Under the pieces are notes generated by a model that did no database searches, was not told where the DNA came from, and was given only the letters and a program-made list of their open reading frames with translations. Below, in pieces: positions 2,974 through 32,181 of a stretch of DNA of 64,000 nt. The position numbers were made by a program, and so were the translations under genes. The DNA comes from a virus. Within the stretch, counting starts at the first letter, position 1, and each line of letters begins with the position of its first letter. The stretch lies in IMG/VR virus record IMGVR_UViG_3300047470_000395, positions 1-64,000 of that record; one strand, given 5' to 3'.

Positions 2974-2982
2974 GGTGCGCCC

Positions 2983-3567
2983 GTGCTCCTCTCCGACAAA
3001 GACATCCGCAAGGCCATAGCCGACGACCGGCTGGGCATCGCCCCCTTCGACGACGCGATGGTGCAGCCGGCGTCCGTCGACGTGTGCCTGGCCCGCCAGT
3101 TCCGGGTCTTCGAGAACCACCGCGCCACCCACATCGACCCGGCCGAGGAACAGCCCGACCTCACCAGGCTCGTGGAGCCGGAGGGCGACGAACCGTTCAT
3201 CCTGCACCCCGGGGAGTTCGTCCTCGCGTCGACGCACGAGGTCATCACCCTGCCCGACGATCTCGCCGCCCGCCTCGAGGGCAAGAGCTCCCTCGGCCGG
3301 CTGGGACTGGTCACCCACTCCACCGCCGGGTTCATCGACCCCGGCTTCTCCGGCCACGTCACCCTCGAGCTGTCCAACCTGGCGAACCTGCCGATCAAGC
3401 TGTGGCCCGGCATGAAGGTCGGCCAGTTGTGCGTGTTCGCCCTGTCCAGCCCGGCCGAGCACCCGTACGGCAGCACCGAGTGCGGCTCCCGCTACCAGGG
3501 ACAGCAAGGGCCGACCGCGTCCCGCTCGAGCCGGGACTTCCACCGCACTGTCGTACCCCACTCGTAG
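2983..3567 (+). CDS. dcd: dCTP deaminase
   Basis: [45 protein letters not shown] motifs; TAGGGT box 6 nt upstream suggests leaderless transcript. Confidence 0.95.
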
Positions 3568-7828: not shown

Positions 7829-8266
7829 TCACGCCCTGGTGTTGGACCTGCCTCCCAGCACGTTCACGTTCCTGATGTTGACCGTCTTCGGCCTGCGCAG
7901 CGCAGCCACGATCCTCGCGACGACGATCATGAACACGATGCTGGCGATGGTCGTACCGAACCCCGTCGCCGCGGCGAGGAGCTGACTGGCACCCGTGAGG
8001 AGGTGCCCGCCGCCCCAGGCCGCGACCCCGAAGCCGACGCCGGCGCCGACCATACGCTGAGCCTTCACGTCCAGGAGCGGCTGCGGTGCCAGGTCCCGGG
8101 GCGGGGTCGGCGGCGTCGGCTGCAGATCAGAGCGACGGATCTGCACGGACTTGTTCCGGTCGTACGGGTCCTGGACGTGCACGATCGGGTCGAGTTCGTC
8201 GCGCATCTCCACGGCGCCCACGACCGGCTGAGGGGTGTACGAGCGGATCACAGGCTTGCCGGACAT
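7829..8266 (-). CDS. Membrane protein, Spd(D)-like spread protein
   Basis: Pro-rich N-terminus, two TM segments, directly downstream of traB as in Streptomyces plasmids and AICEs. Confidence 0.5.
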   Translation of the reverse strand: MSGKPVIRSYTPQPVVGAVEMRDELDPIVHVQDPYDRNKSVQIRRSDLQPTPPTPPRDLAPQPLLDVKAQRMVGAGVGFGVAAWGGGHLLTGASQLLAAATGFGTTIASIVFMIVVARIVAALRRPKTVNIRNVNVLGGRSNTRA

Positions 8267-10248
8267 GCGGGGCTCTCCTTGCTGGTGTCGTCGACGTCGA
8301 CTTCGGGGGTGTGCTGGGCTGCGGTGAGGACGAAGACCACCGACCGGTCGCGCTTGCCGTTCTCCTCCACCCAGCCCTGACCGACCCACTGGGACAGCCA
8401 CGGCGAGATCGACGAGTGGTGGTTGCAGATCCCCATGCGGACCGCTTCGCCCTTGGTCAGGCCCTCCGGCCCGGCCTTCTCCAGCGCGCGCCACAGCTCC
8501 AGTCGGTTGTCCTCGATCCGGGAGCCGTCCGGGTACATCGGGACGGCGCGCAGCACCGGCCGGCCGCCGCCCCGCGGGCCGCCACCGCGCGGGGGCGGAG
8601 GGGGCGTCGGGTCCGGATCGGGGTCCAGGTCCGGGTGCGGGCGGACGTCCGCGTCCGTGTCCTCGGCAGCCGGGGAGTGCTCGCGGGACGTCTCGAGGAT
8701 CTCCTCCTCGGTGATCCAGTAGCAGCGGCCTTCGTTCGGCGTCGTGTACCGCTCGGACGAGACCATGCACTTGCCCGGCAGGTCGAGCTCGTCGAGGCGC
8801 CAGCCCTTCCCGTACGCGCCCGTCCCCATGATCATGTTGATGGGGGTCGGCTCATTGACGGGCAGGCCGATGCGCACGCCGAACTGCTGCCGGGTGTCGG
8901 TGCCCTTCCCGCCGAACGCCTGCTCGCTGGGCGACTGGGTCGCGGCGATGATGCGGATACCCATGGCGCGGGACACCTGCATCAGCGTCATCAGCTCGGA
9001 CGCCACGTCGGGCGCCTGGCGGATGAGCTCGGCGAGCTCGTCGATGATCAGGACGATGTACTTGCCGTGCTTCCGGGTCCACTTCTTGACCCGCTCGCCC
9101 TTCGGGCCGCGCAGCGTCGACAGGTGCTTGCCGCGCCGGGTCATCTCGCCCTTGAGCCAGACCAGGACCTGACGCGCGGTGTCCGGGTCGTCGGCGAGGG
9201 CGATCATGTTGTCGCGCCACGGGCCCAGCTCGAGCGCGCCGGGCTTCATGTCGATGCCCGCGAGGTCGACGTCGCCGCAGGCCACGAGGTTCGCGGCGAG
9301 GACGTTGACGGCCCCGGACTTGCCCTTGTTGGTGCCACCGGCGACCAGGACGTGCCCGTCGACGATGTCGACCAGGATCTCGCTGCCGTCGGGGTAGACA
9401 CCGATCGGGATGGGCTGCTCGATCGAGTCGATGCGCACGCCCGGCCACGAGATGCCGGGCCCGGCGAGCGGGTCGGTCGTCTGCAGCCGCACGATCAACT
9501 GGTTCGGCTGCGCGCCCTCGGTGAGACGGAGCCGGCCGGGGAGGTCGAGGTTCGCCTGGAGCTGCTGCCGCTTGGCGATGACGAAGGCCGCGGACGTGTT
9601 CTTGCCCGGGGGCAGCGTCACCAGGCAGTACCAACCGGTCTCGGTGAACACGATCCGGGAGACGTCGACCGCAGGCACGCCCAGGGCCACCAGGGCGCGG
9701 CGCAGCGCGGTCTCCTCCTCGGTGTCGCCCGTGACTCCGGCCTGGCCGATGTTGACGCCCATCCCGTCGGGCAGGGTCGCGGTCTTGGCCGCCTTGATCT
9801 GCAGGTTGAACCGCTCGTGGCGGGACTTGATCAGCCACGGCACGTACACCGCGTACGAGGAGATCGTGACGACACCCGAGGCGATGAGCGACGGGACGGT
9901 CGGGCCGGTGATGGCGCCGATCGCCGTGTTCACGATCGTGCCCGTGGAGGCGACGCCGAGAGAGGTGGCGAGTCCGTTCTTGTGCTTGATACCGCCCCAG
10001 GTCAGGCCGCCCGCGGCGGCGAGCGCCACGCCGTACCCGGCGTACGCGGCCGGTGTGACGCCGGCGAGGTGGTGGAGCCAGCCCAGGCACGTCATGCCGA
10101 ACGTCACCGCGGCCGGGGCCAGTTCGTAGCGCATCCGCCCACACCAGCGGCACACAGCCTCGGCCATGCGGCGCGTACGGCCGTGGGGCGAGACCTCGTC
10201 TATGGGCGGCGGGGTGACGTGATCGGTCTTCTCGCGAGGGATGAACAC
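8248..10248 (-). CDS. traB: FtsK/SpoIIIE-family conjugative DNA translocase (TraB-like)
   Basis: N-terminal TM helices, Walker A GGTNKGKS, IDMKPG, Walker B LIIDELAEL, ATQ motif, C-terminal wHTH-like domain. Confidence 0.85.
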   Translation of the reverse strand: MFIPREKTDHVTPPPIDEVSPHGRTRRMAEAVCRWCGRMRYELAPAAVTFGMTCLGWLHHLAGVTPAAYAGYGVALAAAGGLTWGGIKHKNGLATSLGVASTGTIVNTAIGAITGPTVPSLIASGVVTISSYAVYVPWLIKSRHERFNLQIKAAKTATLPDGMGVNIGQAGVTGDTEEETALRRALVALGVPAVDVSRIVFTETGWYCLVTLPPGKNTSAAFVIAKRQQLQANLDLPGRLRLTEGAQPNQLIVRLQTTDPLAGPGISWPGVRIDSIEQPIPIGVYPDGSEILVDIVDGHVLVAGGTNKGKSGAVNVLAANLVACGDVDLAGIDMKPGALELGPWRDNMIALADDPDTARQVLVWLKGEMTRRGKHLSTLRGPKGERVKKWTRKHGKYIVLIIDELAELIRQAPDVASELMTLMQVSRAMGIRIIAATQSPSEQAFGGKGTDTRQQFGVRIGLPVNEPTPINMIMGTGAYGKGWRLDELDLPGKCMVSSERYTTPNEGRCYWITEEEILETSREHSPAAEDTDADVRPHPDLDPDPDPTPPPPPRGGGPRGGGRPVLRAVPMYPDGSRIEDNRLELWRALEKAGPEGLTKGEAVRMGICNHHSSISPWLSQWVGQGWVEENGKRDRSVVFVLTAAQHTPEVDVDDTSKESPACPASL

Positions 10249-10398
10249 GTCACGTCACCTCGCCAGGAGGGACGCGGACAGGCGGACAACGGCTGCGGTG
10301 CGCGAGGGCATCGGGGTGTTCCTTCGTTCGTGGTCTCGGCGGTGCTCTCCGCCGTGGGGCCTGGCCATGACGCCAGATGTTCGGTTGTCGCGGGTGGG

Positions 10399-20634: not shown

Positions 20635-21624
20635 CTACTTTCCGGTGAGTTCTTCCAGGAATTCGATGGTCTCCTCGAGGCCGAGCGCGGCCCCGACCAT
20701 CGCGTTGAACCGGCGTGTGAACCGGTCGACTTCGCGGGGCTTGTCCGACGTGGACACCGCCCCCCACGCATTGTCGGTCTGGACACGAGACGGCAGCTCT
20801 CCGAGGTCCAGGATCGTGAAGTCGTTGCTGGCCCGATAGCCGCGCTTGTACGTCAGGACCTGGACTGAAATGTGGTCCTGCCGGGCCAGCTTGATGACCT
20901 CGCGATACTGCTCTCGCATGATGCTGTCGTCCCCGACGGGGATGCGCAGCGCCGCCTCTCCGAGGATGACACGAAGCCGTACGTCCTCGCGCTCGAGAAC
21001 TCTCCGCTTGCGCTCCATCCGCAGGTCCACGTTGCGCTGTATGAACTCGCTGGTGGTGTCCTCGACGGGGCGCTGCACCTCAAATAGGGCCCGCGCGTAG
21101 TCCTCGGTCTGCAGGAGGCCGTACACGACGGTGGGGTGGTACGCGAGGATCTCCGTAGCCTCGGCTTCCAGGCCGACGAAGTGCGGCATGCCCGCTGGCA
21201 TGAAGCCTCGGTACTGGGTGAGCCAATCGTCGTTCGGCGCCTCGCGGTTCAACTCGACCAGTTGCTCGATCAGTTCGTCATCGTCGACGGCGTACCGCTT
21301 CAACAGCGTGCGCAGGTCCCCGACGTTGCGCCGGAAATTGAGCTCGCCGTTCTCGACCCGAGCGAGGGATGCCTCGGACAGTGCCTTGAGGCCACGGACG
21401 GCCGCCTTGCGGGTCATCCCGCGCGCCCTGCCGTCCTCGATGGGCGGACAGTTTTCGCGCAACTGTCTGAGTTGGATGCCGAGCTCCAAGCGCCGCCCGG
21501 TTGCCCCTCGCTTCGCCGCCACCTGTGCACCACCCCCATGCGTTTGCGCTGGTTGAGTATGACCCTGCGCAGAGTCTGACATCCGCTGAGCGCTCACCGC
21601 AGCCCCTTGTGCAGGTTCTGGCAT
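20635..21624 (-). CDS. XRE HTH regulator with DUF5753 domain (Scr1-type)
   Basis: LGIQLRQLRE, LARVENG, GLLQTEDYARA, ILGEAALR; real start may be GTG 21522. Confidence 0.88.
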   Translation of the reverse strand: MPEPAQGAAVSAQRMSDSAQGHTQPAQTHGGGAQVAAKRGATGRRLELGIQLRQLRENCPPIEDGRARGMTRKAAVRGLKALSEASLARVENGELNFRRNVGDLRTLLKRYAVDDDELIEQLVELNREAPNDDWLTQYRGFMPAGMPHFVGLEAEATEILAYHPTVVYGLLQTEDYARALFEVQRPVEDTTSEFIQRNVDLRMERKRRVLEREDVRLRVILGEAALRIPVGDDSIMREQYREVIKLARQDHISVQVLTYKRGYRASNDFTILDLGELPSRVQTDNAWGAVSTSDKPREVDRFTRRFNAMVGAALGLEETIEFLEELTGK

Positions 21625-21806
21625 AGTCCATTTACGCCTCCGCTGAATTTTCAGAGGCGATCCAGTTGCTTACCAATGCGTCCTACCGCCACGGTAGTTG
21701 AGCCAACGCAAGCCGTGACAGGCAAGTGGAGAAATTTCGCATTCCAGTGCGAGCCGTACTCCGCCCTGCCACACCGCCACGCACTGGACGCCCCGGAGGT
21801 CTCGGC

Positions 21807-22700
21807 ATGACACCTGCGTTCCTGACGCAGCGGGACGGTATCCGGTCGGCCCTCGAACTCTCCATCGAGCGGCACCCCGACCCCGATACCGAAGGCCTCT
21901 CCGAGACGGACGCCGCCTGGCCGGAGCGTCTCCGCCGAATCGTTCGCGCGGGCCTGACGTACTGGCGCCGGACTGACCTGATCGACACCGCGGCACTCCT
22001 GCTGACCGAACTCGCGACCAACGCCCTTCGGCACGGCAAAGGGAGCGACATCAGCGTCCGCGTCTTCTTTCGTGACGACCGCCTGGTGATCGAGGTAGAC
22101 GACGGCTGCCCCACCCGCCCCGAACTGCGCCACCCCAAGCTCGACGACGAGGGCGGCCGCGGCCTCCTCCTCGTCGAGGCCATGGCCGCGGAGTGGGGCG
22201 TCAGCCCAGATGGCACCACCACCTGGTGCACCCTCCCCCTGACCAAAGGACCCGAAGAGATGCAACCCGCCGCGGCGACCGCTCCGGTCCTGCGCGAGGT
22301 CCCCATTGATCTCCCCGCCAATGCCAGCGCCGCAGGGTTAGCCCGTATTCAGGCGCGAACCTTGCTCACCGTGTTGAGCTGGCCCGGGAATCAGCACCTC
22401 GCGACTGACGTCCTGCACGTCCTCGTCGACAACGCTGTAGAGCACGCCCTCACGCCCGGCAGGACCGGGCAGCGGCTGAGTGCCTGCCTCAGCGTCACGG
22501 AAGCCCACGAGCTGCTCGTCGACGTCACGGACCCCGTCCCGCAGTTCCCCGAGTTCGACAAGGCTGTCGCTGGCGAATCGGGGCGCGGCCTCTGGAAGAT
22601 CGCGCGACAGGGGGCGGCCCTCTCCTGGTTCGTCGTCGGCTCCGACTTCGACTCCAAGACCGTGCGGGCCGTCCTGCGCCCCGGGCCGGTGAAACCGTGA
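21807..22700 (+). CDS. Tandem HATPase_c (anti-sigma-like ATP-binding) protein
   Basis: ELATNALRH...EVDD...GGRGLLLV and LVDNAVEH...DVTD...SGRGL; in-frame TTA codon at 22338. Confidence 0.8.
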   Translation: MTPAFLTQRDGIRSALELSIERHPDPDTEGLSETDAAWPERLRRIVRAGLTYWRRTDLIDTAALLLTELATNALRHGKGSDISVRVFFRDDRLVIEVDDGCPTRPELRHPKLDDEGGRGLLLVEAMAAEWGVSPDGTTTWCTLPLTKGPEEMQPAAATAPVLREVPIDLPANASAAGLARIQARTLLTVLSWPGNQHLATDVLHVLVDNAVEHALTPGRTGQRLSACLSVTEAHELLVDVTDPVPQFPEFDKAVAGESGRGLWKIARQGAALSWFVVGSDFDSKTVRAVLRPGPVKP

Positions 22701-23236: not shown

Positions 23237-23489
23237 GACTCCGCGCTCGTCGATTGCGTGACGGTCGTCGACGAGCACGGTCAGACCCTGCGGCCGGGGA
23301 GGATCCGGCCCCGGCCGCAGGCCCCATCTGGAAACGAGCACTCATGACGAAGCTGCTTCTCCTCACGGCCGTTGGGCTGGTCGGCGTTGCTCTCCTGCAG
23401 CCCGCCCGGACCGACCGCAGGCCGGCGCCTATAGCGCGCCTGCAGGAAGAGGAGAACCGACTCTTCGCCGAGCTGTGCAGGAGGTCGCT

Positions 23490-23987
23490 ATGAGGCTGCA
23501 GCCCGTCCCGGCCGACGAGCTCGATGAGCCGTGGCTGTGGTGGAAGCCCGCGGAGCCCCGCTTTCGGATGACCGCGGACGCGAGGCTGAGCGCCCTGCGC
23601 CGCAGTGTCTTCGGGGACGCCATGGCTGGGGTGAAGCCCGGCCGCCCCATCAGGGTGACGACGTATGTCTTCGCGGCTCCTGGTGTGGACGTCGACGCCA
23701 CGCATGCCCTGCTGGGGCGGCACGCGCGTGACCGTGGGTGGGCCGTTCACCGGGAACGGTTCACGGATGAGCCCCCGGGCGGTCCGCTCCCCATCCGCCC
23801 CCAGTTCAACATCGCGTGCCGTCGCGCCGGATCCGGCTTCGTCGACGGCGTGCTCACGACCGACCGGGGCGCGATGCCCAGCACTGACGAGGCGTACGAG
23901 GCGTATCTGCGCTGGCTGCACCGACACACCGTCTTCGTCGCCTTCATGCAGCCAACTACCGGGGGAACAGAGTGGACAGATCAGTAG
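23490..23987 (+). CDS. Degenerate serine-recombinase catalytic-domain-like protein
   Basis: GWAV...FTD...RPQF......GFVDGVL resembles a resolvase N-domain; GGAGG RBS. Confidence 0.45.
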   Translation: MRLQPVPADELDEPWLWWKPAEPRFRMTADARLSALRRSVFGDAMAGVKPGRPIRVTTYVFAAPGVDVDATHALLGRHARDRGWAVHRERFTDEPPGGPLPIRPQFNIACRRAGSGFVDGVLTTDRGAMPSTDEAYEAYLRWLHRHTVFVAFMQPTTGGTEWTDQ

Positions 23988-24580
23988 CGCCCTACGTGAC
24001 GTCGTGGTCGGGGGAGAACATGACGCCCGCCGCGGTGACCGTCACCGCGGCCGGAGTCGCGTATGCCGACCCGGTCCAGGACGCTCTCGCGCGCGATCTG
24101 GACGGCGCGCTGTGGACGCTGTGCCACGGCCAGGCGAGCGGCAAGCCCGAGTACGCGGCCAAGCTCCACCCCGAGCGGCAGAAGGCCGCGATGGACGGTC
24201 TGCTCTGCGCGGGCTGCAGGAAGCCGGCCGCCCGGGACGAGCGCGGGATGCTGTGGGTCCTCCCCCTCCTCGACGACGCCGTTGTAGCGAGCTGGGAGGG
24301 CGTACGCGCTGGCATCCCGCCCATGTGCGAGGAGTGCGCCGAGCGGGCGCCGCGCCTGTGCCCGGTATTGCGCGAGGGCCATGTGAAGCTCCGCGTCCTC
24401 GAGGCCGAACCGATAGGCGTACGCGGGACGCTCTACCCCCGGCCCGGCGAGGCTGGTGCCCCGCAGGAGGACGCCCTGGTCCTCTACGACCACCCCGATC
24501 TCCCGTTCGTCGTCGCCTGCGAAGCCGTGCGCGAGCTCCGACGGACCACCGTGGTCGCCTTCGCCGCGGCCATCCCATGA
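23972..24580 (+). CDS. Hypothetical Cys/His-rich protein
   Basis: PYVTSWSGE, LHPERQKAAM..LLCAGC, PPMCEECA...CP. Confidence 0.6.
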   Translation: MDRSVAPYVTSWSGENMTPAAVTVTAAGVAYADPVQDALARDLDGALWTLCHGQASGKPEYAAKLHPERQKAAMDGLLCAGCRKPAARDERGMLWVLPLLDDAVVASWEGVRAGIPPMCEECAERAPRLCPVLREGHVKLRVLEAEPIGVRGTLYPRPGEAGAPQEDALVLYDHPDLPFVVACEAVRELRRTTVVAFAAAIP

Positions 24581-24816
24581 CCCCTGTCCGGTGGCCCGGT
24601 GCCGTACGGCCTGGGCCATCGGACAGGCAGCAACTCCGCCCGTCGAAAACGGCATCGGCGCGGGCGGAAGGCGGCGCCGGGGTCACGTCCCCTCGCAGAT
24701 CCCGGCGCCTGCCAACAAGACCCCCGGCGCGGGCAGTGCCCGAAATCCGTCTCCCTGCAAGGTCCGCGCCGGGCCCCGCACCACTTCCGGATCGAACAAC
24801 CAGGAGGACAGAGGAC

Positions 24817-25812
24817 ATGACCGACCTCGGAATCCCGACCGTTCCCCAGCAGCAGCACAGGGAGATCGGCGGAGGCGTGGGCTACGCGTTCAGCGGACAG
24901 CACTTCACGATCGACCCGGGCGCGGACCTCGAGCAGGTCGCCGCGACGCTCCAGCACCCGCTCTCGGTGATCCTCCAGGTCACCAAGCGCTGCAACATGG
25001 ACTGTGGGTTCTGCTCCGAGACCCTGCAGATGCCGGACCCCTCCCTCGAGCAGCTCGCCGCCATCCAGCGGAACCTCGAGGGCGTGAACCGCGTGTTCCT
25101 CTCCGGCGGGGAGCCGCTGTTCCGCAAGGACTTCGGCGACATCGTCGACATCTACCACGACGGTGGGCACATCGTGGCCGTGCCCACGAACGCCGTGTAC
25201 GCCGAGCTCCACGCCTCCCGCATGGCTGGCAAGGTCGCGTACGCCAACGTCGGACTCGAGGGCCCGCGTGCGGTCACCACCCGCATGCGCGGCGACTACG
25301 ACGCCATCATGGCCGGCGTGCGGGTCTTCCAGGAGCACGGCATCCCGCTCGCCATGTCGGCCGTCGTCTACCGCTCGAGCCTGACCGCTCTCCCGTTCAC
25401 CGCCCAGATCGGCGACGTCATCGGCGCCAGCAAGGTGAAGCTGATCCTGCCCCTGCGTAAGGGCAACGCGCTGGGACTGCCGGAGCAGGAGTTCATCACC
25501 CAGGACGAGGCCCTGGCCGCGTTCTCGCGACTCGAGGAGAAGGCCGCGGAACTGCAGTGGTCGCCCGCGCTGCGGATGACGACGTGGACCCCCGAGAACG
25601 AGGGCCACATGATCGTCATCGAGCCGAACGGCACCGCACGCGCGTGGCCCGTGTACGACGCGAAGGACCTGTGGGAGGACCTGGGCAACGTTTTCGAGGA
25701 GCCGATCACCGAAATCTGGAAGCGGTACCGCTTCAAGGTGCAGCACCTGTCCAAGTACGTCGGGAAGTCGATCCACACCACCGTCCAGGGCGCGCTCACC
25801 GGGAAGAAGTGA
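24817..25812 (+). CDS. Radical SAM enzyme
   Basis: CNMDCGFC (CxxxCxxC), SGGEP, TN motifs; Cys-less SPASM/twitch-like C-terminus; GAGGA RBS. Confidence 0.9.
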   Translation: MTDLGIPTVPQQQHREIGGGVGYAFSGQHFTIDPGADLEQVAATLQHPLSVILQVTKRCNMDCGFCSETLQMPDPSLEQLAAIQRNLEGVNRVFLSGGEPLFRKDFGDIVDIYHDGGHIVAVPTNAVYAELHASRMAGKVAYANVGLEGPRAVTTRMRGDYDAIMAGVRVFQEHGIPLAMSAVVYRSSLTALPFTAQIGDVIGASKVKLILPLRKGNALGLPEQEFITQDEALAAFSRLEEKAAELQWSPALRMTTWTPENEGHMIVIEPNGTARAWPVYDAKDLWEDLGNVFEEPITEIWKRYRFKVQHLSKYVGKSIHTTVQGALTGKK

Positions 25813-25814
25813 CC

Positions 25815-26612
25815 ATGAGGTCCTACACCAACCTCCTGCGCCCGGACACCCCGTTCGGGTCCGTCACCGACCCGTGGCGACGGCCGACGAAGTGGCTCGC
25901 CGCAATGTCGCTGCTGTGGGGCGATGCCGGCGGAGACGAGCCGCCCGTCATCATGGCGGCCGGCCTCGTGGTGATGTCCGTGCACCGCACCCGGCCCCGC
26001 ACGGTCTCCGCGCCGCTGGCCCAGTTCGGGTACCGCGTCGTCGTTCCGGAGTCGATCGGCGAGAACGACCAGATCATCAAGGTCGTCGACGATGCCCTTG
26101 TGCAGGGGCGCCGAGAGGCGGAGGTGATCGCCTGGCACAACGCGGCCGACGACCTGCACGTCCTGCAGCAGCTCCCCCGCCCCGAGGGGGCGCCCCGGTA
26201 CGCGGGCATCACTGCCGTGGCCGAGGCCTGGGGCGACCGTGCCGTGCACGAACGATCGACCGCCCACTGTGTGGACTCGGGCCATGACTTGGGCCCCGCA
26301 GCCGGGCACGTCAGCGCCACGGCCCTCGCGCACGACCTGGAGCCGATGAAGGAGTTCGCCGGCCCCGATCAGCAGCAGGGAGCGCAACTCGCCTGCGAGG
26401 CCCTTGCCGAGAACCGGCTCGGGGATTACTCCCCCGACGTCCTCGCGGCGAGCGTCCTGACCTCCGCCGTTACAACCGCGCTCCTCGGCGGCAAGCACGC
26501 CGAGCGGCTGGTGTGGCGGGAGCCGCTGAGCATCACCGAGTTCGTCGGGGCCGTCGCCTGGGAGGTGGCGCCTCCCCTGTTCTCTGGCGTGGCGCCGTCC
26601 CTCAGCGAGTAG
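25815..26612 (+). CDS. DnaQ/RNase H-like exonuclease-fold protein (likely degenerate)
   Basis: IAWHNAADDL resembles ExoII (AHNxxFD), CVDS resembles IDT; ExoI acidic pair is not evident. Confidence 0.4.
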   Translation: MRSYTNLLRPDTPFGSVTDPWRRPTKWLAAMSLLWGDAGGDEPPVIMAAGLVVMSVHRTRPRTVSAPLAQFGYRVVVPESIGENDQIIKVVDDALVQGRREAEVIAWHNAADDLHVLQQLPRPEGAPRYAGITAVAEAWGDRAVHERSTAHCVDSGHDLGPAAGHVSATALAHDLEPMKEFAGPDQQQGAQLACEALAENRLGDYSPDVLAASVLTSAVTTALLGGKHAERLVWREPLSITEFVGAVAWEVAPPLFSGVAPSLSE

Positions 26613-26670
26613 CGTCCGGCGGGGCCGCGCGCACCCGGCGCGGCCCCGTCCTACGGCAGGAACACACCAC

Positions 26671-27531
26671 ATGATCATCAAGAGCAGCTTGCCCACCGCA
26701 CGCTCCCTGCAGCCGCCGCCGCTGCGCACGGGAGTCGTGCGGATCGCGTCCATCGACGTGGAGTGGACGAAGAACTATCGGATCAAGAACGGGCAACGCC
26801 CGTTCTGCTACAGCGTCGCGTGGCTCGACCTGCCCGCCGACCGCACGCCGGACCTGGCGGACATGCCGTTCGAGTGGACGAGCGTGTACGTCGAGGAGCC
26901 CGGCGAGATGGACGAGCTCATCCGCAACGCCGCGGCGACCGTGGCCGCGGCCGCGGAGACGTCCACGATCATCACCGGGCACCAGTTCTGCAGCGACCTG
27001 GCCGTCCTGGAGGCGAACGCCCCCACGGACGCCGCCCCTCGCCTGCAGGAAGCCCGTACGCGGTGGAAGGGCAGGCGCGACGCCAACCCGGACGAGAGCC
27101 ACTACGTCGACACCCGGTTCGACGCCGGCCACCTCCTCACGGGGAAGTCGCGCCGCCTGGTCGACGTGTGCAACGAGCTCGGTCTCGACGTCACCCAGCC
27201 GGAACTCCTCAAGGTGACCATGCCCGCCTGGCACCGCCGGTGGGTCGAGGAGGGCCAGGAGGAGGGCCGGGAGCGCGTCAGCGTCCTGAACCTCCGCCAC
27301 TCCCTCTCTACCGCCTACGTCGCCGCCCACGCGGCCGGACTCGGCCGGTGGGCCGACGAGGGCCTGAACGTGAACCGCCTCATCGCCGAGGGCGCAAAAG
27401 GCGCCTGGGGCTGGCTCGAGAACCCCATCTTCACCGACCTCGTGGAGGACAAGTGCCCATCCGAGAGTGCCGCGTTATCGCCGTCGAAGGCACCCAGGCC
27501 GCAGGGAAAACGACGTTCGTCCACGCGCTGA
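26671..27531 (+). CDS. DnaQ-like 3'-5' exonuclease-fold protein
   Basis: SIDVEW (ExoI DxE), ITGHQFCSDL (ExoII), YVDT, RLVDVCNELGL. Confidence 0.55.
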   Translation: MIIKSSLPTARSLQPPPLRTGVVRIASIDVEWTKNYRIKNGQRPFCYSVAWLDLPADRTPDLADMPFEWTSVYVEEPGEMDELIRNAAATVAAAAETSTIITGHQFCSDLAVLEANAPTDAAPRLQEARTRWKGRRDANPDESHYVDTRFDAGHLLTGKSRRLVDVCNELGLDVTQPELLKVTMPAWHRRWVEEGQEEGRERVSVLNLRHSLSTAYVAAHAAGLGRWADEGLNVNRLIAEGAKGAWGWLENPIFTDLVEDKCPSESAALSPSKAPRPQGKRRSSTR

Positions 27532-28064
27532 CCGCGCACCTCCGGGAGCAGAGCATCGGCGTCACCTGCACCGGTGAGCCCGCGCGCACCAGCCCCTTCA
27601 TGGAGGACATCGTCCTTCACGGGACAGGGCCCTTCGACCTGGTCGCGGAGCTCGACTTGTTCGCCCAGCACTTCACCGTGCCGCTGCGCGCCGCCCGGCA
27701 CCACCAGGTCCTCGTCACCGACAAGACCCCCGCGAACGTCCTGGCCCTGGCCGGTCTGGTCCTCGACCCCACCGAGCCGGGCACCGCTTCCGTCCTCGCC
27801 GCGGCGGAGGCGATGTGTCGGGCCTGGATGCCCATTGCGTACGACGCGATCGTGTACTGCCGGGACCGCTACGACCAGAAGGCCGGCGGCGACCGCATGA
27901 GGGAGAAGGTCCTCAGCATCCAAGACGAGTCCGACACCGCCATCTACGACGCGTGCCGCGCCACGGGCGTGCCGATGCTCGAGATGCCCACGGGCCTGAC
28001 CGTCTCTGAGCGTGTCCAGTGGACGATGGAGCGCGTTGGGGACATGGGGCTGATCGCCGTCTGA
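27453..28064 (+). CDS. P-loop nucleoside/nucleotide monophosphate kinase (thymidylate kinase/dNK-like)
   Basis: IAVEGTQAAGKTT, EPAR, VTDK; GGAGG RBS before GTG 27453. Confidence 0.75.
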   Translation: MPIRECRVIAVEGTQAAGKTTFVHALTAHLREQSIGVTCTGEPARTSPFMEDIVLHGTGPFDLVAELDLFAQHFTVPLRAARHHQVLVTDKTPANVLALAGLVLDPTEPGTASVLAAAEAMCRAWMPIAYDAIVYCRDRYDQKAGGDRMREKVLSIQDESDTAIYDACRATGVPMLEMPTGLTVSERVQWTMERVGDMGLIAV

Positions 28065-28119
28065 TCCCGGCTAGAGTCCCCTACCGGCAAGCGCCCAACC
28101 GGTCGGAGGACAACGCACC

Positions 28120-28563
28120 GTGCCCCAACTGCCCGTGAACGACGTAATGCTCATCCTCGAGCGCGACGGGGCCGTGTGCCTTGCCGAGCGGCAGGGCACC
28201 GGCTACGCCGACGGGAAGCTGAACCTGCCGTCCGGGAAGCTCGACCCGGGCGAGGACGTGTTCGACGCCGCGCTCCGTGAGCTCGAGGAGGAGACCGGCG
28301 TCAGGAGCACCCGGGACGCCCTGCGGATCGTGCACGTGATGCACTTCCGCAACCCCGAAGGGGAGCCCCGCGTGGGCTGGTTCTTCGTCGTCCGGCACTG
28401 GGAGGGGGAGCCGCGGAACATGGAGCCTCACAAGTGCGCGGGCTTGTTCTGGTACCCGGCTGACCAGCTTCCCGAGCACACCGTCGAGTACAACGCGCTG
28501 GGGATCGCCCACTACCTCAAGGGTGAACAGTTCTCCGTGCACGGGTGGGACAGGTCCTCGTAG
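28120..28563 (+). CDS. NUDIX hydrolase
   Basis: Nudix box GKLDPGEDVFDAALRELEEETG; EPHKC. Confidence 0.92.
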   Translation: MPQLPVNDVMLILERDGAVCLAERQGTGYADGKLNLPSGKLDPGEDVFDAALRELEEETGVRSTRDALRIVHVMHFRNPEGEPRVGWFFVVRHWEGEPRNMEPHKCAGLFWYPADQLPEHTVEYNALGIAHYLKGEQFSVHGWDRSS

Positions 28564-28655
28564 AGCCTGGGGTGTAACAGATCACGGCCGTTGACGTTCG
28601 GGCAGTGAAGGGGGTTGGCCTTTATGTCAACCCCGCAGTGACCCGGAGGAACGGT

Positions 28656-29258
28656 GTGACGACCGCGACAGCTCCCATCTCGCCCGAGGCCGGCCGCTCT
28701 CATCTGCAGGAGAGCTTGTTCTCCTGGCTCGAGCCCGAGCCAGCCCCGAAGCCGCGCATAGCCAAGCCCGCTCTCGAGCCCGCGCGCTCACCGGTGGCCG
28801 AGGCGTTGATGCTCGAGGATGCGGCCCCCGCCACCGCGCCGGTGGTCAGGGCCGAGACGAAGACGCTCGAGGAGTCCGACCCGGAAGGCCCCACGGTCGC
28901 CCCGGCCCCGGAGAAGAAAGACCTGTCCCACGTGTGGGTCGTGGCCGCCGAGATCGAGGTCACGCCGAAGATCGCGAGCGTCGCCGACTACCGCGGCAGC
29001 TTCAAGAGCACCGAGGGGCAGCGCGTCGACGCGCTCGAGGTGTATTGCAAGGGCTGCCGTCGCCCGTACGACGAGGTCAAGGGCCGGGACTGCGCCGAGA
29101 AGATCGACAACAAGCACCTGATCGGCGGGGACCAGAGCGTCCGTGCGAAGCGGAAGATCCCCGTGCCGCCCGCGAACGCGAAGATCATTCCCGGCGGCAC
29201 GATCAACCGGCGCGGCCTCGGCGCCTACGTCTCCGGAGTGTCCCGCCCCAAGCGCTGA
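28656..29258 (+). CDS. Hypothetical protein with CxxC motif
   Basis: GGAGG RBS; YCKGCRR...C...HLIGG; basic C-terminus. Confidence 0.6.
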   Translation: MTTATAPISPEAGRSHLQESLFSWLEPEPAPKPRIAKPALEPARSPVAEALMLEDAAPATAPVVRAETKTLEESDPEGPTVAPAPEKKDLSHVWVVAAEIEVTPKIASVADYRGSFKSTEGQRVDALEVYCKGCRRPYDEVKGRDCAEKIDNKHLIGGDQSVRAKRKIPVPPANAKIIPGGTINRRGLGAYVSGVSRPKR

Positions 29259-29302
29259 GCAGCACGCGACACTAATGCCGCCCGCTGTTCATGGTGCGCG
29301 GC

Positions 29303-29698
29303 GTGACTACTCAGCAACCTCAGCCGTCGAGCGATGAACCGATCGCCCATAACCCGGACATCATCGGGCCTGCGGTTCCCGACGCGAAGATCGGCCGGGA
29401 GGCCTTCGGGCTTCTCCTGCTCTCGTTCGGTGTGCTCGGCGGCCTCGGTGCGCTGGGTGCCCTGCACTGGGTCGCCGGTCTGTCAGCCGCGCTCATCGGC
29501 CTGTGTGGCAGTGGCGTCGTCGTCCGCCGCAACAGCAAGCAGCGATGGCAGCAAGACGCCGGCGCCATGGTCGCCTTCGCCGCCTACGCGGGGCAGACCG
29601 CCCTCCTGTTCTACCTGCTGCAGCCGCTCGGATGGCTGGCCGTCAGCTCCCTCGGCATAGCCGCTGGCCTGTGGCTGTCCAGCGATGAGGGGGCCTGA
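29303..29698 (+). CDS. Membrane protein preceding portal
   Basis: About 4 TM segments; leaderless GTG after the motif at 29265-29295. Confidence 0.65.
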   Translation: MTTQQPQPSSDEPIAHNPDIIGPAVPDAKIGREAFGLLLLSFGVLGGLGALGALHWVAGLSAALIGLCGSGVVVRRNSKQRWQQDAGAMVAFAAYAGQTALLFYLLQPLGWLAVSSLGIAAGLWLSSDEGA

Positions 29699-32181
29699 TG
29701 CCCCGCCAACTCTTCCCAGGGCTCCGCGGCCTCCTTGTTCCTCGAGGCGCCGTGGAGCCAGCAGCCGCGACCGCGCCCGTCGAGACGAAGGACCTGCTCG
29801 CAGGGGGCGTCTACTCGTCGATGTCGTACGCCGGCGTCACGAACGTGTGGGGTACCCCGGGCCGCGCGGACGGCTGGGACCTCGAGCGCGTCATCGTCGA
29901 GGGCTACGAGCGCTCCATCTGGACCTTCAAGTCCGTGGAGGCGATCAGCAAGCACGCCTCGACCCTGCCCATCCAGATTGGCCGCGGCGGCGACGAGCGG
30001 CAGTTCGCCGAGGTCCTCAAGGACCACCCGCTGTACAAGCTGCTCAACCGGAAGGCCAACCCGCTCGAGACCGGCGATGTCTTCAAGAAGCGGCTGAGCG
30101 CCCAGTTGCTGCTGAGTAAGAAGGGCGTGTTCGTAGAGAAGACGAAGAACCGGCGCGGGGTGCTGACCCGGCTCGACCTGCTGCCACCGGACCGCGTCCG
30201 CATCATCCCGGACACCGAGAACTCCGCCTATGTGAGCCATTTCGAGCTCACGGAGTACAACGGCCGCATCCGTGAACTGCCGCCGGAAAAGGTCATCTGG
30301 ATCAGAGACCCGCACCCCACGGACCCGTTCTGCGGCGTGACCCCGCTCGAGGCCGCTGGGCTGTCGGTCGACCTGGACGTCAAGGCCCGCACCTACAACA
30401 TCTCCTTTATCAACAATGACGGCCGCCCTGGCGGCATCGTCGGTATCGACCTGGACGGCGTCGACTCGTCAGAGGTCAAGCGGATCCAGAAGCGGCTCGA
30501 GCCGGGCGCGCACAACGCCGGACAGCTCACCCTCGTGGGCACCGGACCCGGCGGTGTCACGTACGTCGACACCTCGGCCCGCCCGCGGGAGATGGCATAC
30601 GAGACGCTCGCCAGCACCTCGAAAAACGAGATCCTCTCCGCATTCGGCGTACCCGAGAGTGTGATCGGCAACGCCAGCGAGCGGACGTTCGCGAACGCCG
30701 ACCGGGAGGAGTACACGTTCTGGGCTCACACCGAGCTCCCCCACCTCAACCTGCTTGCGTCGGCGTTCGACCCGGACCTGTCGGACGAGTGGGTGATCCG
30801 GTTCGACACCTCCCGCATTCAGGCGCTCGAGTTTCCCCGCCGTCAGGCCCGCGAGGAAGCGCGCAAGGAGTGGGAGTCGGGTCTCATCACCATCGACGAG
30901 TACCGGGTGGCGGCCGGGCGTACGCCCTTCAACACCCCGCAGTCCCGTGCGCTGTGGATCAGCCCACAGAAGGCACCCGTCCCCGCCAACGCCCAGGACG
31001 CGGCCGCACTCGGCCTCTCCGACCCGGGCGGCGCACCGGGCGCAGGCGGCGCCCCCGGAGCAGGCCCGGACGCTGGGCCGCCCGCGGCCGGCGGGAACCA
31101 GTCCGCCGCCGCGGCGGTCGCCGAGGCCCGCACCGACGAACCCGGTCCGAAAGCAGCCGACGACGTAGCCGCGGCCCGCGGGCAGGCACCCCTCGAGCCG
31201 TCCGCCGGAGCAGACTCGCCCGCGGCCGGCGCCGTGGCGGATGCCCGCGCCGACGTCACCGACGACACCCCCGGGGAAGCAGCCGACAACGTTGCGGCCG
31301 CCCGCGCCAGCACGGTGCAGCCCGAGGCCGGGCCCGCCGCCGAGGAAGTCGAGCGAGCACGCGCCCAGCTCGAGACCAAGGCGCTCTCCGGCGACGACAA
31401 CGGGTTCGAGGTCACCGACGCCGACTTCGACGCCCTCGCCGCAGCCATCGAGGCGGCCCTCACTGCGCTTCTGGCGCGCCAGGAGGGCGTCATCGTCGCC
31501 CGGCTCCACGCTCCGAAGATCCGCAAGCACACCAGGTTCTGGACGCCGGAGAACGACAACGACACCCGCGGCGGTGACGCCAACCTCGACGAGGACCGCG
31601 TCGTCAGCGCGGCCCGCTGGGCGGAGGAGACCACCAACACCCTCACCCCGATCCTGCAGCAGGCCGCGGCCGCCACCGCTCGCAAGCTGAGCAAGGCAGT
31701 CACCGGCACCGAGACGGTGCCCCCGGCCGCAGTCGCGCCCGCCCTCGTCACCGCGGCGCACGCCGGGGAAGCGATGACCGCGTTCCTCATCGAACTCGCC
31801 GCCGTGCTGCACCAGGCCCAGGCCGACCCGAACCTCGACCTCGACACGCTGAAGCACGTGGTCGGCGGCTTCTACAACTCGGCCGGCCCCGATCTCGCCG
31901 CCCGGGTCGCGGAGACCTGCGCCGTCTCGACCGTCAACGGGGCCGCGGACGCCGCAGCAGAGAACGCCGGGCCCGGAGTCGTCCGGACATGGCTCACCCG
32001 CCAGGACGACCGCGTACGGCCCGCGCACCGCGCCCTACAGGGCAAGACGCTGCCCGTCGGCACGCCGTACGAGATCGACGGCGCCCAGCTCCGTTACCCC
32101 GGCGACCCGTTCGCCCCGCTCGCCCTGACGATCAACTGCCGTTGCCGTCTCCACTACGCCACAGACGAGGACGTGAACTGA
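29698..32181 (+). CDS. Phage portal protein fused to a MuF-like (head morphogenesis) domain
   Basis: HK97-type portal N-terminal half (HPLYKLLN, GVTPLEAA, ILSAFGVP); C-terminal WLTRQDDRVRPAH...LRYPGDP...INCRC. Confidence 0.85.
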   Translation: MPRQLFPGLRGLLVPRGAVEPAAATAPVETKDLLAGGVYSSMSYAGVTNVWGTPGRADGWDLERVIVEGYERSIWTFKSVEAISKHASTLPIQIGRGGDERQFAEVLKDHPLYKLLNRKANPLETGDVFKKRLSAQLLLSKKGVFVEKTKNRRGVLTRLDLLPPDRVRIIPDTENSAYVSHFELTEYNGRIRELPPEKVIWIRDPHPTDPFCGVTPLEAAGLSVDLDVKARTYNISFINNDGRPGGIVGIDLDGVDSSEVKRIQKRLEPGAHNAGQLTLVGTGPGGVTYVDTSARPREMAYETLASTSKNEILSAFGVPESVIGNASERTFANADREEYTFWAHTELPHLNLLASAFDPDLSDEWVIRFDTSRIQALEFPRRQAREEARKEWESGLITIDEYRVAAGRTPFNTPQSRALWISPQKAPVPANAQDAAALGLSDPGGAPGAGGAPGAGPDAGPPAAGGNQSAAAAVAEARTDEPGPKAADDVAAARGQAPLEPSAGADSPAAGAVADARADVTDDTPGEAADNVAAARASTVQPEAGPAAEEVERARAQLETKALSGDDNGFEVTDADFDALAAAIEAALTALLARQEGVIVARLHAPKIRKHTRFWTPENDNDTRGGDANLDEDRVVSAARWAEETTNTLTPILQQAAAATARKLSKAVTGTETVPPAAVAPALVTAAHAGEAMTAFLIELAAVLHQAQADPNLDLDTLKHVVGGFYNSAGPDLAARVAETCAVSTVNGAADAAAENAGPGVVRTWLTRQDDRVRPAHRALQGKTLPVGTPYEIDGAQLRYPGDPFAPLALTINCRCRLHYATDEDVN

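Follow-up and report, generated by a model that had tools for sequence, protein, structure and literature searches.

The sequence analysed here (the window) is a 64,000-nucleotide stretch corresponding to bases 1–64000 of the 125,780-bp virus record IMGVR_UViG_3300047470_000395, which was judged to be 97% complete. With a G+C content of ~70%, the window covers the left half of the genome of a Gilgamesh-like Streptomyces phage of 125.8 kb, and it contains a cassette of five genes that an earlier prediction, made from the letters alone (the original prediction), had linked to nucleotide modification. A third-position G+C (GC3) frame plot combined with reading of the open reading frames (ORFs) bore out the five co-directional, closely spaced genes between positions 24817 and 28563, all on the plus strand. 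The first, g1 (24817–25812), encodes a 331-residue radical S-adenosylmethionine (SAM) enzyme and has an ATG start preceded by AGGAGG. It is followed by g2 (25815–26612; 265 residues) and g3 (26671–27531; 286 residues), two paralogues with a DEDD 3'-5' exonuclease fold, of which the former is degenerate, and by genes for a 203-residue kinase with a GTG start (g4, 27453–28064) and a 147-residue Nudix hydrolase (g5, 28120–28563). The GTG at 27453, a choice supported by 28 orthologues whose N-termini lie at the same place, makes the kinase gene overlap g3 by 79 nt (27453–27531). This overlap is found in Streptomyces because g3 there has a basic, Ser/Pro-rich C-terminal tail (the last ~25 residues, Streptomyces-specific, modelled with low confidence and absent from other families); outside Streptomyces the two genes abut or share 4 nt.

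The same five genes are found in the same order in Streptomyces phage Gilgamesh (genes 39–43, three of which are annotated as hypothetical), a cultured phage whose host is S. lividans and whose 3.7-kb cassette shares 81% nucleotide identity with that of the window. A search with the g1 alignment in one genome per prokaryotic species retrieved 80 loci, all from Actinomycetota except one in a metagenome-assembled genome of Dormibacterota (L047). The architecture was tallied by tblastn at 1e-5 (a threshold at which divergent g2 copies may escape) in the 66 loci that extend at least 3.9 kb beyond the start of the radical SAM gene, the other 14 being dropped because the contig ended early or there was no clean radical SAM ORF. 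The full set (radical SAM, g2, g3, kinase, Nudix) is present in this order in 41 of the 66, from Streptomycetaceae, Micromonosporaceae, Pseudonocardiaceae, Nocardia, Thermomonosporaceae and Streptosporangiaceae. The rest have no co-directional Nudix gene (9/66), no g3 (8/66, Frankiaceae), no detectable g2 (2/66), a kinase–radical SAM–g3 order (2/66) or an irregular architecture (4/66). A radical SAM gene, a DEDD-fold gene and a kinase gene occur together in 62 of the 66 loci; a 63rd, L080, cannot be scored, its g2 and kinase being masked by runs of N. Since the order is the same in Gilgamesh and in 41 of the 66 scorable bacterial loci, the five-gene arrangement is far beyond chance. The original prediction had staked itself on co-conservation of the five genes outside the window, and the tally supports it on this point.

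The product of g1 matches the radical SAM family (PF04055, 1.2e-14). Its CxxxCxxC motif, already picked out as CNMDCGFC by the original prediction, is made up of C59, C63 and C66, which are invariant in 16 sequences and are the sole cysteines of the protein; with three cysteines in total, g1 has none of those that would hold the auxiliary iron–sulfur clusters of SPASM or twitch enzymes, and the C-terminus shows a weak SPASM-like match (0.033, 14.9 bits against a cut-off of 21.5). When a profile of 16 members was compared with the Protein Data Bank (PDB), the best matches were SkfB (2.7e-10) and PqqE (1.9e-9), then MoaA and BlsE (3.9e-6), and matches to viperins (1e-5 to 6e-4) were confined to the N-terminal core (query residues 34–119). 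The protein is below every NCBIfam cut-off: the viperin model NF038283 requires 180 bits and is matched with 29.7, at positions 4–95 of 281, and the PADLOC model for prokaryotic viperins (pVips) is matched only at positions 2–94 of 257. The idea that g1 might be a viperin, on which the original prediction had drawn, did not survive these comparisons. Based on the profile, cysteine and curated-model results, g1 is assigned to an orphan radical SAM subfamily, neither a viperin nor a SPASM enzyme with auxiliary clusters. This family is small (73 clusters at E ≤1e-30 among 1.84 billion representatives), with identities of 55–94% across Actinomycetota. A tblastn search of g1 against 50,697 phage records matched only Gilgamesh and two fecal contigs, and the clusters found in the ESM Atlas were all radical SAM clusters without a name. 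Neither a peptide substrate gene nor an RRE domain was seen for g1.

Neither g2 nor g3 has a match in Pfam, PHROG, NCBIfam or PADLOC. Alignment of their families with hhalign shows that they are paralogous (probability 99.5, E 7.5e-23), and AlphaFold2 produced models with a predicted local distance difference test (pLDDT) score of 90.7 for g2 and 90.1 for g3. Foldseek matched the g2 model to Pol alpha exonuclease domains, RNase T, TREX1 and DnaQ (E 1.5e-4) and gave E 1.8e-4 and a template-modelling (TM) score of ~0.47 for g3. In VIA-align, g3 reached a Z of 14.9 to the yeast Pol alpha exonuclease domain, and the best 50 rows all came from proteins or polymerases with a DEDD-type 3'-5' exonuclease domain, led by family B polymerase proofreading domains and followed by Klenow, WRN, epsilon, RNase D and the diDNases; for the polymerase proofreading domains, Z was 12–15. 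The models and the two structural searches thus agree on the DnaQ/DEDD fold that had been proposed for both middle ORFs. The DxE and GH..D motifs read earlier in g3 proved to be invariant in 31 sequences: D29 and E31 (Exo I), G103, H104 and D109 (Exo II), as well as H210 and two motifs, SRRLVDV and QPEL. Five residues beyond H210, at the place of the canonical last aspartate of Exo III, there is an invariant alanine, and three further invariant acidic residues, D147, D151 and D165, might stand in for the missing carboxylate. The view of g2 as the degenerate member of the pair also holds: it has no conserved DxE and only five invariant columns (M1, P13, G72, R99 and G131), and is probably a non-catalytic pseudo-enzyme of the DEDD fold, with g3 as the predicted catalytic partner on account of its catalytic-type motifs. 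A natural g2–g3 fusion exists (P0151, 488 residues, with one g2-like and one g3-like half). A total of 811 relatives were found, none with a family or functional name; nearly all are labelled 'hypothetical protein', with '3'-5' exonuclease' and 'Integrase' as stray UniRef labels. We also considered whether the P-loop and RNase H-like proteins, lying upstream of the portal gene, could be a split large terminase, and rejected this, since the set is also conserved where no phage genes are near and the matches of g3 are to DEDD exonucleases, not to terminase nucleases.

The P-loop (GTQAAGKTT) and the Nudix box attributed to the last two proteins were both recovered. The best Pfam match of g4 is AAA_28 (9.5e-7; 29.6 bits against a cut-off of 27), and its scores against thymidylate kinase models fall below both cut-offs (PF02223, 19.2 bits, cut-off 27; TIGR00041, 21.9 bits, cut-off 83.25). 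The g4 profile finds M. tuberculosis thymidylate kinase as its best, weak match in the PDB (1.5e-4, residues 8–119), and the GKT of the P-loop, EPAR, DKT and the lid arginines are invariant. By its sequence, g4 is a P-loop kinase resembling nucleoside monophosphate (NMP) kinases and thymidylate kinase, and it would act as an NMP kinase at best. In g5 the Nudix box (GX5EX7REUXEEXGU) is intact, with G39, E45, R53, E54, E57 and E58 invariant, and PF00293 is matched with 65.7 bits against a cut-off of 21.1 (5.7e-18). The closest PDB match of the g5 profile is the MutT/NUDIX protein 4dyw (4e-18), along with plant NUDX1, MTH1 and NUDT15; g5 lies below the MutT equivalog cut-offs (NF008044, 41.6 bits against 148; TIGR00586, 37.1 against 97.9) and has weak NCBIfam matches to the RNA pyrophosphohydrolase family (7.4e-8). 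These comparisons assign g5 to the Nudix hydrolases of predicted MutT/NUDT1 type.

More distant full-length relatives of the radical SAM protein include fusions to MazG (P0242), to a PfkB kinase (P0337) and to an AP_endonuc_2 domain (P0272). The relatives of P0242 come from metagenome loci of 30–44% G+C. In four of these low-GC loci (L098 duplicates L097), a radical SAM gene whose product is 43–49% identical to g1 is followed by a g3 homologue and then by a small MazG gene; the small ORFs tested at L093, L094, L095 and L097 were MazG in four out of four cases. In another (L092), MazG is fused to the radical SAM protein and the g3 homologue lies directly next to it. The low-GC g3 homologues keep all the g3 motifs, and the radical SAM–g3 pair is the most widely conserved association of the cassette. 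In the two most distant loci (L101 and L103), the radical SAM gene is followed by a true thymidylate kinase (PF02223, 6.4e-33 and 4.9e-29). According to its Pfam annotation, MazG is a nucleotide (NTP) pyrophosphohydrolase. The fusions to PfkB and to the TIM barrel AP_endonuc_2 suggest that the substrate is a small molecule, a sugar or a nucleoside, and not a peptide. The retention of an NTP pyrophosphatase (Nudix replaced by MazG) together with the kinase link to thymidylate kinase is difficult to account for unless the radical SAM enzyme acts on a free nucleotide; judging from these associations, the substrate is probably a pyrimidine deoxynucleotide, the phosphorylation state of which the partner enzymes would control. 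The distant clade with PfkB, AP_endonuc_2 and thymidylate kinase (L101, L103, P0272 and P0337) may represent a related nucleoside pathway in other phyla. One locus of this clade lies on a 2.46-Mb contig; formylmethanofuran-transferase genes are among its flanking ORFs when these are taken together with the flanks of five other loci.

The swap of Nudix for MazG, the MazG–radical SAM fusion and the true thymidylate kinases of the most distant relatives support the nucleotide-level pathway of the original prediction, which we regard as likely. A different possibility is that the proteins process or repair the ends of a polymer, with the radical SAM enzyme acting on DNA or RNA, the DEDD pair trimming 3' ends, the kinase phosphorylating a 5'-OH or a base, and the Nudix enzyme removing 5' pyrophosphate or caps. 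Radical SAM enzymes that act on polymers are known (spore photoproduct lyase and M6 gp53), and indeed each of the domain families has polymer-acting members: it is DEDD exonucleases that g3 matches, the Nudix protein has its weak RNA pyrophosphohydrolase matches, and the radical SAM–g3 pair is the one most widely kept. Radical SAM enzymes and P-loop kinases acting on DNA are also named in PMC8989533. Nevertheless, g5 is closest to MutT/NUDT1-type NTP hydrolases and is substituted by what Pfam describes as an NTP pyrophosphohydrolase, g4 is closest to thymidylate kinase (with a true one in the distant loci), and no ligase, helicase or glycosylase is consistently linked among the flank families listed, all of which make end processing improbable. 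That the five genes are unrelated neighbours without a common function is hardly credible, given their order and tight spacing in 41 of 66 loci from several actinobacterial families, the retention of parts of the set in low-GC organisms, and the g2–g3 and MazG–radical SAM fusions. Most likely, the five genes form one horizontally mobile unit that makes and handles a modified nucleotide, probably a pyrimidine deoxynucleotide.

On the phage, the cassette is set off from what lies upstream by a GC-rich, terminator-like hairpin (24583–24627, plus strand; -43.7 kcal/mol, z -5.46, equalled by 0 of 200 shuffles) located right after the stop of the preceding gene. This hairpin, which is kept in the phage-type loci (the window, Gilgamesh, L002, L003, L006 and L008), marks the cassette off as its own unit. 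A second, intra-operon hairpin with a 13-bp GC stem occupies the gap between g2 and g3 (26618–26650, plus strand; -35.6 kcal/mol, z -3.21, equalled by 1 of 200 shuffles). Scans of 23400–29800 gave no sigma-70 promoter site and five terminator-like matches, which are short and mostly within genes. On the 5' side lie a tyrosine integrase gene, a WhiJ-like pair and three small genes without a Pfam match; on the 3' side, genes for a small protein, a membrane protein, a portal–MuF fusion and a staphylococcal-nuclease-like protein, and a 3,830-aa ORF. The phage copy is therefore placed like a moron, past a strong hairpin and between the integrase/regulator block and the head genes.

The WhiJ-like pair consists of an XRE-type HTH_31–DUF5753 gene (20635–21624, minus strand; DUF5753, 1.9e-43) and an HATPase_c_2 gene (21726–22700, plus strand; 2.9e-13). 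Members of the HATPase_c_2 cluster are found close to the cassette in 20 loci, a linkage that is suggestive only, given the very many paralogues of these families in actinomycetes. Immediately upstream of the cassette (23972–24580, plus strand) is a gene for a Cys-rich 202-residue protein with CxxC pairs and no Pfam match. Members of its cluster are encoded 0.7–1.9 kb upstream of the radical SAM gene in nine further loci, including Streptosporangium, and in a tenth the ORF lies 2.9 kb upstream on the opposite strand; five of the loci with such an ORF (L012, L015, L023, L058 and L076) have no portal gene. This protein may be a sixth, lineage-restricted and optional component.

Several further observations concern the phage as a whole. 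It carries plasmid-like genes (window 8248–10254, minus strand, and in the record beyond 64 kb) encoding an FtsK/SpoIIIE protein (6.6e-15), a ParA-type AAA_31/CbiA protein, DUF2637, SSB and a sigma-70 factor, and near-identical cassettes are found in Streptomyces assemblies on contigs of 115–128 kb, approximately the phage's own size; these two observations suggest an extrachromosomal (phage-plasmid) prophage. It also encodes a dCTP deaminase-like protein (window 2974–3567, plus strand; PF22769, 2.8e-47), a further nucleotide-pool enzyme. When 73 further phage ORFs were scanned with Pfam, the first 25 of the 34 families found included one NUDIX match and one prohead protease family S78 match.

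The cassette is not phage-specific, and the majority of its copies reside in bacterial genomes; only in the closest Streptomyces loci does it have portal and other phage genes beside it. IMG/VR yielded four further copies, all from the Gilgamesh-like crown clade: three are on contigs of 70–128 kb, and the fourth is on a fragment of 7 kb that shares 94% identity with the window. In a quick tree of the radical SAM protein (ORFs with stops, X or fewer than 300 residues left out), sequences grouped by host family, and the phage copies fell within the crown clade of Streptomyces. Occurrence is patchy: the radical SAM gene is present in 6 of 201 Streptomyces species genomes, counting the centre genome, which was chosen for having the cassette. 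Other carriers are a Lentzea plasmid (L034), the phage-plasmid-like phage itself and regions with Replic_Relax or DUF2637 genes. The surroundings were surveyed over 150 of 163 ORFs from 25 diverse loci (the last 13 ORFs, of L076–L078, were left out), and the commonest among the first 25 families of each tally were HTH_31 (9), Methyltransf_19 (7), DUF5753 (6), Replic_Relax (3), HATPase_c_2 (3) and DUF2637 (2). The cassette is thus cargo of variable and mobile regions, and its flanks are no clear defence island.

Carriage by a phage and a plasmid would also suit a counter-defence role, in which the cassette destroys or alters immune nucleotides of the host (cyclic oligonucleotides, signals derived from nicotinamide adenine dinucleotide, or 3'-deoxy-3',4'-didehydro nucleoside triphosphates, ddhNTPs) or refills nucleotide pools. 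Nudix and MazG enzymes and small nucleases of the DEDD type are able to break down abnormal nucleotides or signalling nucleotides, the fold matches of g3 include a diDNase DEDD structure, and AAA_28, the best Pfam match of g4, is the NadR-type kinase family. Most copies, however, reside in bacterial genomes without nearby phage genes, a radical SAM enzyme has no obvious signal-degrading role, and g3 is nearer to polymerase proofreading domains than to dinucleotidases, so we judge this role quite improbable. Even less can be said for a small biosynthetic cluster for a secreted nucleoside antibiotic, a very improbable reading in which kinase and Nudix would adjust the phosphorylation of intermediates as in the polyoxin, oxetanocin and blasticidin pathways. 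The actinomycete hosts, a BlsE-type enzyme among the nearest solved relatives of g1 (3.9e-6) and the distant fusions to PfkB and to a sugar-isomerase-like TIM barrel fit with it; against this, no transporter, resistance or tailoring genes are consistently linked among the flank families listed, the cassette is found on a phage, and two DEDD exonuclease-fold proteins would be out of place in such a pathway.

The phage is equipped to modify its own DNA. Outside the window, the record encodes a DpdA-type DNA transglycosylase (101051–101791, minus strand; PF23859, 2.9e-81; locus L091), the Gilgamesh homologue of which adjoins a PAPS-reductase-like gene; the phage also encodes a C5 methylase and a PAPS-reductase-like protein. 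QueC was not found in the phage, and the virion DNA probably carries 7-deazaguanine, with the base supplied by the host or another route. An alternative assignment of g1 as a QueE feeding DpdA was rejected: the sole similarity is a weak PHROG match on the radical SAM core (7e-4), no QueC is present, and the cassette does not adjoin DpdA in other genomes. DpdA occurs in 27 of the 201 Streptomyces species genomes, namely in 3 of 6 that have the cassette versus 24 of 195 that do not (one-sided Fisher p 0.033, the positives not being independent and one of them being the chosen centre).

This setting brings up the possibility that the cassette serves hypermodification of the carrier's own DNA through the nucleotide pool, so that modified phage, plasmid or integrative-element DNA resists restriction. 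Here Nudix or MazG would convert deoxynucleoside triphosphates (dNTPs) to monophosphates (dNMPs), the exonuclease would supply further dNMPs from degraded DNA, the radical SAM enzyme would modify them, and the kinase would return them to dNTPs. The scheme is closely matched by the combination of an NTP pyrophosphatase, an enzyme working at the NMP level and a dNMP kinase, and by the exchange of Nudix for MazG; the mobile elements that carry the cassette are exposed to restriction; this phage has other genes for DNA modification (DpdA, PAPS-reductase-like protein and C5 methylase); and radical SAM enzymes and P-loop kinases already co-occur in thymidine hypermodification clusters, as described in PMC8989533. 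On the other hand, searches of the 125,780-bp record for PF00303, PF00136 and PF00476 (thymidylate synthase (TS)-like enzymes and family B and A DNA polymerases, respectively; other polymerase families were not searched) found none of them in this 97%-complete genome, and the host replicase would therefore have to accept the product. In addition, most copies are bacterial, where a change at the level of the pool would extend to the entire chromosome; in the low-GC versions no kinase adjoins the radical SAM gene; no restriction partner was seen; and the M6-type radical SAM enzyme is not a detectable relative of g1 by tblastn in the 50,697 phage records. Overall, hypermodification seems rather unlikely to us.

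Our preferred reading, which we put forward tentatively, is that the product is a nucleotide analogue used as a weapon. A use in conflict is favoured by the bacterial location of most copies, their patchy distribution, the mobile carriers (the phage-plasmid-like phage, the Lentzea plasmid and the regions with Replic_Relax or DUF2637 genes), the single Cas3, QatA, PifA and E1-E2 genes among the flank ORFs, and the moron-like position of the phage copy beside regulators that travel with the cassette elsewhere; its logic rests on analogy with the viperins and Ophion. What was observed directly is the order and co-conservation of the genes, the folds and motifs of their products, the fusions, and the substitution of MazG for Nudix. 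These features suggest a mechanism of which we infer every step. The radical SAM enzyme g1 would perform radical chemistry on a nucleotide; the MutT-type Nudix g5, replaced by MazG in the distant relatives, would interconvert NTP and NMP forms; and the thymidylate-kinase-like g4 would bring the NMP form back toward the triphosphate pool. The DEDD pair, with g3 as the catalytic and g2 as the degenerate partner, would act on nucleic-acid 3' ends that carry the product or are barred from carrying it. The analogue, possibly a chain terminator, would be deployed by the carrying element or its host against competing phages or plasmids, as defence or superinfection exclusion, and Nudix (or MazG) and the proofreading-like exonuclease would confer self-immunity by limiting self-damage. 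The most specific form of this proposal is a non-viperin radical SAM analogue immunity of actinobacterial mobile elements and their low-GC cousins, which directs a deoxynucleotide analogue against DNA synthesis and ensures self-protection through a DEDD heterodimer and an NTP pyrophosphatase. DNA synthesis would be the target rather than transcription, since the linked kinases are of thymidylate kinase type. In this complete form the proposal is unlikely.

A number of observations weigh against the weapon reading. The cassette has no known product, substrate or phenotype; g1 was rejected as a viperin, with scores far below the cut-offs and a match confined to the N-terminal core, and its best solved relatives by profile, SkfB and PqqE, are SPASM enzymes that modify peptides. 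None of the accessory roles is universal. The Frankiaceae cassettes without g3 (L048–L051, L054, L060, L062 and L068) have only the degenerate g2, so that the DEDD-fold protein of this Frankia lineage cannot act as a nuclease; nine loci have no co-directional Nudix gene (in L053 and L077, tblastn located an opposite-strand Nudix next door); and in the low-GC loci there is no kinase near the radical SAM gene. The most frequent neighbours are regulators and Methyltransf_19 rather than defence genes, and among the families listed for the 150 flank ORFs, defence-type genes are few (one each of Cas3, QatA, PifA and E1-E2, counted without an enrichment test). The tree tracks host families, so transfer between families is not frequent. 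Furthermore, an antidote that removes the analogue everywhere would shield the invader too, and a selectivity step would thus be needed. Finally, the same enzyme logic fits DNA hypermodification equally well.

If the cassette does make a new nucleotide, it would add a radical SAM reaction on nucleotides and provide either a new small molecule active against viruses or plasmids, which might serve to inhibit polymerases or terminate chains, or a new natural modification of DNA bases. Were the DNA-directed immunity to prove true, viperin would have its first counterpart directed at DNA, and two unannotated protein families would be defined. A role is also offered for two conserved families without a Pfam entry, the DEDD-like pair of g2 and g3, and the hypothesis is directly testable, given a cultured phage (Gilgamesh), a tractable host and a small cassette.

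The absence of a named system, as stated in the original prediction, is upheld by PADLOC, NCBIfam and the literature searched; that literature holds no description of the gene set or of phage Gilgamesh, with supplements and subscription journals outside the search and a prior mention possible there. When compared with established definitions, the cassette falls outside the viperins, the auxiliary-cluster SPASM enzymes, the MutT equivalog, thymidylate kinase (by score), Ophion and the T4-type pathways, and within the radical SAM and Nudix families and the DEDD fold. It is undescribed as a set and contains two protein families without annotation. Its protein components show the same mixture of kinship and divergence. 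Like SkfB, PqqE and BlsE, its relatives by profile, g1 has a C-terminal region with weak SPASM similarity, but unlike them it has no auxiliary-cluster cysteines and lies below the curated cut-offs. Similarly, g3 shares with the DnaQ/DEDD exonucleases (family B and A proofreading domains) the fold, the Exo I DxE, the Exo II aspartate and the Exo III histidine, whereas it differs from them in standing alone with a degenerate paralogue, in having alanine for the Exo III aspartate and in its extra motifs DTRYD, SRRLVDVC and QPEL.

At the level of the whole system, close parallels include pathways that modify nucleotides. T4 gp56, gp42 and gp1 (dCTPase, dCMP hydroxymethylase and dNMP kinase), SPO1 and the MazZ/PurZ system of S-2L are examples of pre-replicative nucleotide modification. 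The cassette resembles these pathways in the logic of a dNTP pyrophosphatase, a dNMP modifier and a dNMP kinase (MazG types can be the pyrophosphatase), but its modifier is a radical SAM enzyme rather than a relative of TS or PurA, most copies are bacterial, and the TS-family modifier and phage replicative polymerase of the T4/SPO1 type are missing, as PF00303, PF00136 and PF00476 are absent from the record. In phage M6, genes 51–54 encode an aGPT-Pplase, a pyridoxal phosphate (PLP) enzyme, a radical SAM isomerase and a 5-hydroxymethyldeoxyuridine (5-hmdU) DNA kinase (PMC8989533). Both clusters have a phage radical SAM gene adjoining one for a P-loop kinase, a pair that in M6 acts on thymidine-type nucleotides; in contrast to the cassette, the M6 enzymes, as presented in that text, are post-replicative, require 5-hmdU and an amino-acid:DNA transferase, and come without a DEDD pair or Nudix. 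No aGPT-Pplase is among the first 25 of 34 Pfam families for the 73 phage ORFs, a tally that included no search aimed at this enzyme.

Among immune systems, Ophion of Gammaproteobacteria combines the radical SAM enzyme OpnA with the PHP protein OpnB and the PRTase OpnC, and in a preprint its authors propose interference with nucleic-acid synthesis (10.1101/2025.09.30.679545). Both Ophion and the cassette bring together a non-viperin radical SAM enzyme, a phosphoesterase domain of proofreading type and an enzyme of nucleotide metabolism. The partners nonetheless differ, being DEDD, P-loop kinase and Nudix proteins here instead of PHP and PRTase, neither of which was detected with Pfam in the five genes and their neighbours; the two systems are thus set apart by their partner families, not by a comparison of OpnA with g1. 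As for the pVips, the cassette differs from them in having a DEDD pair, a Nudix enzyme and a kinase that is thymidylate-kinase-like, since viperin systems contain neither the DEDD pair nor the Nudix, but it has in common with them a CxxxCxxC radical SAM enzyme without an auxiliary cluster, a linked nucleotide kinase, a patchy and mobile distribution and, as proposed here, a product that would be a nucleotide analogue.

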